DNA of 64,000 nt, from NCBI GenBank assembly GCA_951406725.2, contig OX597834.1:11532001-11596000 (forward strand). The letters are read 5' to 3'. Each line of letters starts with the position of its first letter. Positions within the stretch are counted from its first letter, which is position 1. Made by a program: the position numbers and the translations under genes. The notes under the pieces were generated by a model that saw nothing but the letters and a program-made list of their open reading frames with translations, was not told where the DNA came from and ran no database searches. This DNA comes from Octopus vulgaris (lineage: Eukaryota). Below are positions 1 to 50,009 of the stretch, one piece after another.

Positions 1-66
1 AGGTGTTTATAAGCCATTTAAGAAACACACAAAAGCCGTTCGATTCACTTCAACATTTAAGTTTAA

Positions 67-117
67 TTTGTCAAAATATTTTCGTCGCTATAAGACCGCG
101 ACCTGTTCACTGACAAA
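67..117 (-). ncRNA. Minimal type I hammerhead-like motif with G3-C8 swapped core
   Basis: UUUGUCA-GUGAACA-G-GUCGC ggucuuaua GCGAC-GAAA-AUAUU-U-UGACAAA: 7-bp stem I, 5-bp stem II, palindromic AAUAUU stem III. Confidence 0.65.
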
Positions 118-204
118 AGTCCGTGCACACCTCCCACGCTGCAATTGTTTTCGTTTCAGCACACGATCTCAGTTCAAATCACTTGCTATGCAAGTACATC
201 TCCG

Positions 205-254
<50 letters not shown>

Positions 255-22895: not shown

Positions 22896-23070
22896 ACGCC
22901 ATGATAGATCGTTAGCTCATACACGCATTTTTTTCTCACCTCGTTTCTCTTCTCTGTATCTTTCTGACGAAGAGCGTAGGCTCGAAACTTAAAAGACTTT
23001 TTCTATTCCTGAGCGCTATACTAATACATTTGTATGTTTGTACTCCACCTGCCTTCGTCTTTTGCTTGTT
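22896..23070 (+). mobile_element. Family P1 element with hammerhead motif (22959-22996), canonical CUGACGA core
   Basis: UCUUU-CUGACGA-A-GAGC guag GCUC-GAAA-CU-UA-AAAGA (stem III G changed to U); ends in long (TA)n. Confidence 0.75.
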
Positions 23071-49883: not shown

Positions 49884-49923
49884 GTGTCACTGAAGAGGTC
49901 ACAGATGTGTGACGAAAGATTTG
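49884..49923 (+). ncRNA. Hammerhead-like motif, canonical CUGAAGA core, degenerate 3' stem I
   Basis: GUGUCA-CUGAAGA-G-GUCACA gaug UGUGAC-GAAA-GAUUU; same architecture as the 67-117 motif. Confidence 0.55.
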
Positions 49924-50009
49924 CGGATAATGAACACGAGTTAAAATAAGAGCAGTAATAAACGAATGAAGAACAATATATAGTGCGTGTGTTTATTTAG
50001 CAAATATAT

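Follow-up and report, generated by a model that had tools for sequence, protein, structure and literature searches.

The motif and its host element

The window, by which we mean the whole stretch of 64,000 nucleotides of Octopus vulgaris DNA that was analyzed, opens within a copy of a Penelope-like pLTR, and the minus strand of this copy has, from position 117 down to 67, the layout of a type I hammerhead ribozyme. The features are as follows, with the basis of each assignment in brackets.

1 to 126, minus strand: direct arm of a solo pLTR, ending at the short, tail-less 3' end (locus L001 and ORF-linked copies)
127 to 208, plus strand: inverted arm, consisting of the pLTR 3' end and a tail of ~60 bases (copy comparison)
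209 to 252, no strand: (TA)n microsatellite adjoining the insertion, common beside the tail ends of other copies (sequence)
111 to 117, minus strand: helix I 5' strand, UUUGUCA (sequence, fold)
104 to 110, minus strand: core strand G3 U4 G5 A6 A7 C8 A9, with G3 at 110 and C8 at 105 (sequence, family state)
103, minus strand: extra nucleotide G between A9 and G10.1 (sequence; reported as typical of Penelope hammerheads, PMC4209133)
84 to 102, minus strand: helix II, GUCGC/GCGAC (102-98/88-84), with a 9-nt loop II that varies among subfamilies (fold)
81 to 83, minus strand: G12 A13 A14 (sequence, column counts in tail-picked copies)
75 to 80, minus strand: palindrome AAUAUU, A15.1 to U16.1, predicted to form an intermolecular helix III (sequence; dimer model of PMC4209133)
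74, minus strand: U17, with the predicted cut 3' of it, between 74 and 73 (hammerhead numbering, family columns)
67 to 73, minus strand: helix I 3' strand, UGACAAA, pairing with 117-111 (sequence)
49884 to 49935, plus strand: decayed hammerhead copy of the C3-G8 sister clade, core at 49890-49896 (sequence, masked tree)

Reading the minus strand directly confirmed the stems, the GAAA, the AAUAUU and the core GUGAACA that an initial annotation of this DNA had described. Stem I (UUUGUCA/UGACAAA) has seven Watson-Crick pairs and stem II five base pairs, and the core departs from the CUGANGA consensus at positions 3 and 8 only. U4, G5, A6 and A9, G12, A13 and A14, the A15.1-U16.1 pair and an NUH site are found in the window motif and across 80 copies; the literal core C3 U4 G5 A6 N7 G8 A9 is not, as G3 and C8 take the place of C3 and G8. 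The bases at these two positions are compatible with Watson-Crick pairing both in the motif (G3-C8) and in its sister clade (C3-G8).

Folding recovered both stems (-13.8 kcal/mol, z -2.59, with 3 of 200 shuffles equally good), and in the monomer minimum-free-energy structure stem I is lengthened by a G3-U17 wobble. For two molecules, the double-hammerhead dimer was computed at -25.4 kcal/mol against 2 x -12.4 for the monomers and -30.6 for the best cofold, that is, just 0.6 kcal/mol below two monomers and 5 kcal/mol above the best cofold. In 26 hand-picked rows, 85.5% of the cells in the helix I and II columns were paired, exceeding slid controls.

That such a motif would be invisible to canonical searches, as the annotation had proposed, proved correct, since CUGANGA descriptors and Rfam both miss it. 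Rfam gave no hammerhead match on window positions 1-205 at E<=10, and across the whole window the best 150 of 348 matches were nearly all microsatellites matching miRNA models. A type I descriptor with positions 3 and 8 free found two matches in the 64-kb window, the 117-67 motif and one at 22964-23000 (plus strand), an unrelated canonical minimal hammerhead-like motif with C3-G8 and the core CUGACGA plus an extra A. The 49884 motif failed this same scan. It had been called similarly built and canonical; the core CUGAAGA-G-GUC is indeed present, but the copy is decayed, with G at position 17 and a broken stem I 3' strand.

The direct arm continues ~20 bases outside the window edge. Because the window copy shares with Penelope-like elements its pair of 3' ends, its inverted arms and its AT-rich target (PMC8557442, PMC11167929), we classify it as a solo pLTR, specifically of a Neptune/Nematis-type element, the element frames showing the CX3CxxC linker common to both clades. 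The copy itself is probably an inert, solo rearranged fragment. Elsewhere in the family, the pLTR with its hammerhead lies behind a single ORF encoding a reverse transcriptase (RT) followed by a C-terminal GIY-YIG domain, and truncated inverted arms and an optional tail are all present. The ORF is open for 1,025 codons at locus L120, with a YVDD motif; the GIY-YIG profile PF01541 matched with an E value of 9.2e-05, above the cutoff. With regard to a direct 5' pLTR, all long copies examined were 5'-truncated or inverted. Neptune and Nematis as described by Craig et al. in 2021 (PMC8557442) share the RT, a CX2-5CxxC linker and the C-terminal GIY-YIG, as well as inverted truncated arms, an optional tail and microsatellite targets; their canonical members have CUGANGA cores, unlike the GUGAACA found here.

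Several further arrangements were seen around the pLTR. Just ahead of it, at L056:6135-6170 and in solo copies, lie a branch-point-like CTAAC, a pyrimidine tract and a YAG, and many solo copies begin at this point, often with an additional 5' G, so the point could mark either splicing or the start of a capped transcript. At L062 and in other pLTR copies, a frame that begins MAYKHLPRC stays open through the pLTR tail and is a candidate start of the element ORF. A tandem array (G000:C2:206158695-206186224) consists of units of ~2,183 bases with the pLTR motif in each. At L055, two pLTR copies 6.2 kb apart share the same flank and adjoin duplicated frames, which we take to resemble dCMP deaminase.

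Positions 3 and 8 across the genome

A pattern with 19 fixed letters and with positions 3 and 8 free gave 6,144 matches in the genome and 0 for its reversed control. Among the matches listed, 94 of 100 were G3-C8 and none was C3-G8. Non-G3 copies numbered 169; the 100 listed comprised 62 with A, 28 with U and 10 with C at position 3, none of them C3-G8, a state that was also missing from 100 listed G8 copies. With these counts, the reading in which the family is CUGAAGA and the window copy acquired two random mutations after its insertion retains next to no probability. From the pattern counts, we estimate about 5,600 G3-C8 copies, so the variant is far from rare in this genome, contrary to what had been supposed, and CUGANGA descriptors and Rfam overlook thousands of motifs in one genome.

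A second sample was picked by the tail and not by the motif, and comprised the first 80 of 100 listed copies of 2,606 matches. Among its copies that reach the core, G3 was present in 47/47 and C8 in 45/49; A13 and A14 were retained in 54/54 and G12 in 46/54, with losses of the CpG-decay type, and U17 in 57/57. The helix I 3' strand carries an A-to-G subfamily change in 14 of 58 copies, with a G-U pair retained. Long young copies agreed, as all 15 of their motifs listed were GUGAACA (10 loci, ORFs 92-100% like the query). Contigs from four public runs, which cover three organisms, showed no alternative letter at position 3 above the 3% threshold. GUGAACA, and with it G3-C8, is the family state. 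The consensus check that the initial annotation had called for hence came out in favor of GUGAACA, and CUGAAGA as the family consensus is refuted by the pattern listings and by the tail-anchored columns alike.

The swap is older than this family. An older family, which has C or U at N7, AAUU in helix III and a loop II of its own, is likewise G3-C8: its rows comprise 20 G-C, 4 A-C and 2 G-U, and all 75 matches of the search for it, counted by eye and with 2 in the control, include 46 G-C, 10 C-G, 0 G-G and 2 C-C. The nearest protein relative (P0001), which is 56% identical across the region searched, marks a sister lineage with C3-G8 and a pLTR like that of the 49884 family. We masked positions 3 and 8 and built a midpoint-rooted pLTR tree from 58 hand-chosen rows; two of the loci chosen were lost from it, and its bootstrap was unsettled. 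It separates a G3-C8 clade that includes the older family from a C3-G8 sister clade (99/99). The C3-G8 clade holds 23 rows (17 C-G, 5 U-G and 1 C-A), with the 49884 motif inside, and the G3-C8 clade holds 35 (19 G-C, 7 A-C, 5 G-G chosen on purpose and 4 others). Since the published Penelope hammerheads have C3 or U3 (56/56 in PMC4209133), G3-C8 is the derived state. On these alignments, we conclude that G3-C8 arose by one old double swap on one lineage. The view that this is a natural compensatory variant is borne out by G3-C8 in both families and C3-G8 in the sister clade; as one event on one branch, the covariation at 3-8 nonetheless has an n of 1.

Possible intermediates and independent origins were also considered. 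G3-G8 as the ancestral intermediate was rejected as a main state, being a minority in every subfamily counted: among the matches listed, the main family's most diverged subfamily had 80/100 G3-C8 and 6/100 G3-G8, and the TCTGAAA subfamily 97/100 and 1/100. A3-C8, at first seen in 6 of 18 old-lineage rows and later in 4 versus 20 G-C, fits G-to-A decay and was likewise set aside. No dominant mismatch intermediate was found in the diverged, TCTGAAA or older-family sets. A search for G3-C8 families of other descent, with GUC/GAC in stem II, gave 31 matches against 9 in the control, nearly all from the same lineage; A3-U8 on the same stem II scaffold gave 24 against 20, and in a metagenome scan 4 of the 120 matches listed passed a loose stem filter, none convincingly.

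Two families of the sister lineage depart from the hammerhead layout elsewhere. In the old 49884 C3-G8 family (L101-L104, L477-L497), the helix I 3' strand has two unpaired letters directly after C17, and the core-adjacent helix I pair is therefore missing. In a young sister family (L155-L184, e.g., L160:44-113), the core reads CUGAUGC-G-GUCAC, with C replacing the conserved A9 in 52/52 motifs at 30/30 loci; its frames reach about 1,310 codons and its copies are 99% alike.

Relation to known hammerheads

The pairing of C3 with G8 and the rescue of activity by a double swap, which the annotation had invoked, agree with published work (PMC3884650, PMC11167929, PMC9901934). Changing C3-G8 to G3-C8 in an anole Penelope hammerhead gave partial rescue (PMC11167929), and in a full pairwise scan G3-C8 was the only double mutant in this part of the core to restore activity (PMC9901934). 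In the engineered anole element, Poseidon, the swapped pair is the same, and its hammerhead too lies in a Penelope pLTR, with a tail and internal sites of RT initiation. Those swaps are laboratory mutants with partial activity, whereas here the change is natural, fixed and accompanied by long intact frames.

The Penelope hammerheads of PMC4209133 resemble ours in their pLTR site, the extra nucleotide between 9 and 10.1, G10.1-C11.1, a palindromic helix III and an occurrence mostly as solo copies. They differ in the core, which begins CUGA in 54 of the 56 representatives of Fig. S3, UUGA in 2 and GUGA in 0, and the only 3-8 covariant named in the accessible part of that paper is a natural U3-A8. 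The U3-A8 hammerheads of Perreault et al. in 2011 (PMC3088659) are likewise a natural compensatory change at 3-8; they take two transitions and keep a pyrimidine at position 3, whereas G3-C8 takes two transversions, and the accessible text of that survey does not name it. In the literature searched, G3-C8 was found as an engineered state and not as a natural one, and PMC11014351 gave no match; this search was not exhaustive, and an earlier report is possible, for example, in the survey by Lunse et al. of small Penelope-linked hammerheads. If it holds, the variant adds to U3-A8 a second natural case that favors a tertiary pair between positions 3 and 8, reached by two transversions that singly abolish activity according to published assays. 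Furthermore, lineages with G3-C8, C3-G8, G3-G8 and C9 in one genome offer a natural panel for asking what Penelope hammerheads are for.

Selection on the motif and its likely role

Our preferred reading, to which we give a probability of about 0.62, is that the pLTR carries a minimal type I hammerhead whose lineage has fixed G3-C8, likely with a 3-8 pair and a slow cut after U17. Because the engineered swap rescues (PMC11167929, PMC9901934), G3-C8 is predicted to be active. The element RNA would fold into the predicted hammerhead with G3-C8 standing in for C3-G8; helix III would form between the AAUAUU palindromes of two RNAs, each core then cutting the strand of the other, and cutting 3' of U17 would be slow, probably in the RNA dimer or with the help of the element's own protein. 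The computed energies do not favor such a dimer. According to PMC3884650, a Watson-Crick 3-17 pair may trap hammerheads; the same paper reports, with data not shown there, that G3-C8 is less active with C17. The fixed U17 therefore fits G3-C8 and may serve to avoid a Watson-Crick G3-C17 trap, while a G3-U17 wobble could still form.

The fold would have been kept by selection, and for the motif as such selection is moderately supported by the pattern of change. Between the majority sequences of the old and the young G3-C8 families, the core differs at 0 of 10 positions and the flanks at 48 of 125, a comparison in which half of the core is fixed by the search pattern and the flank count is inflated by alignment noise. 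About 12 positions are unforced, for which a test by hand gives a rough p of 0.03. The changes that separate subfamilies sit in loop II and in the flanks, and the single stem change keeps pairing as G-U. Pair 10.4-11.4 of stem II is G-C in this family and A-U in the young sister; the A-U may be CpG decay in old copies and is real in the young sister.

These data also bear on a loss of function in the ancestor, after which two chance complementary transversions would have hitchhiked with a successful element. The event is single, two changes are complementary with a 1 in 3 chance and the selection tests are weak; on the other side, the remaining core is unchanged while the flanks diverged as counted above, and stem changes all keep pairing. 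We regard such hitchhiking as very unlikely. The claim that the variant was kept by selection therefore stands for the motif at the strength given, while selection acting on cleavage is not established, given the single event, the uncut templates and the spread of G3-G8.

The copies themselves read through the predicted cut site. Of the 80 tail-anchored copies, 57 run past it, 20 begin downstream and 3 begin within 2 nt, all 3 at inverted junctions where stem I provides microhomology; in a second set, 97 of the 100 copies listed extend beyond the site. In neither set, of 80 and of 100 copies, do the 5' ends clearly accumulate at the predicted cut. Since most copies run through the site, the templates were mostly uncut RNA. 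Under the preferred reading, RT would start at two tail sites and copy through the uncut motif, and cutting may process long tandem transcripts or come late, so that the template 5' end is not set by the cut.

G8 copies (197) outnumber C3 copies (about 17) ~11-fold relative to the strand-symmetric expectation, whereas other mutation classes are symmetric (A3 about 105 versus U8 82, U3 47 versus A8 43); the position-3 counts are scaled from 100 listed of 169, and the position-8 counts were made with one more letter in the filter. Several subfamilies contain G3-G8, as do two ORF-linked older copies (L123, L131). The excess may come from source elements that carry G8, from a mutational hot spot or from local duplication. 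On one chromosomal stretch (G000:C16:0.6-6.6 Mb), 21 of 100 listed G3-G8 copies cluster, 18 of the 21 with one loop II type. The C9 of the young sister family likewise implies that the core tolerates change in these elements. Inactivating the anole ribozyme left insertion in vitro unimpaired, and its cutting needed the protein (PMC11167929); the uncut templates, the spread of G3-G8 and the C9 sister agree with this.

The same observations favor a hammerhead fold kept for a noncatalytic job, such as RT binding, RNA pairing or marking the template 5' end, in which cutting is negligible and G3-C8 preserves shape. The C9 family is both very young and abundant, and the loop II types described below fit a use of two RNAs. 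Against it stand the 3-8 pair, which is confined to the active conformation (PMC3884650) and is Watson-Crick in both clades, and the retention of G12, A13, A14, the A15.1-U16.1 pair and H17 in old and young families. We hold this noncatalytic alternative to be somewhat unlikely.

Inverted insertions provide a further view of the templates. In 4 of 12 inverted pairs (insertions at L032, L046, L049, L095 and L075 were compared), the two arms have unlike loop II types, which suggests two RNA templates per insertion. An extended version of the preferred reading would have a fully functional G3-C8 hammerhead coadapted with U17 in a long active lineage, its palindrome pairing two RNAs that both enter one inverted insertion; as a whole, we consider this unlikely. 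Within the same inverted pairs, the base at position 8 also differs between the arms in two.
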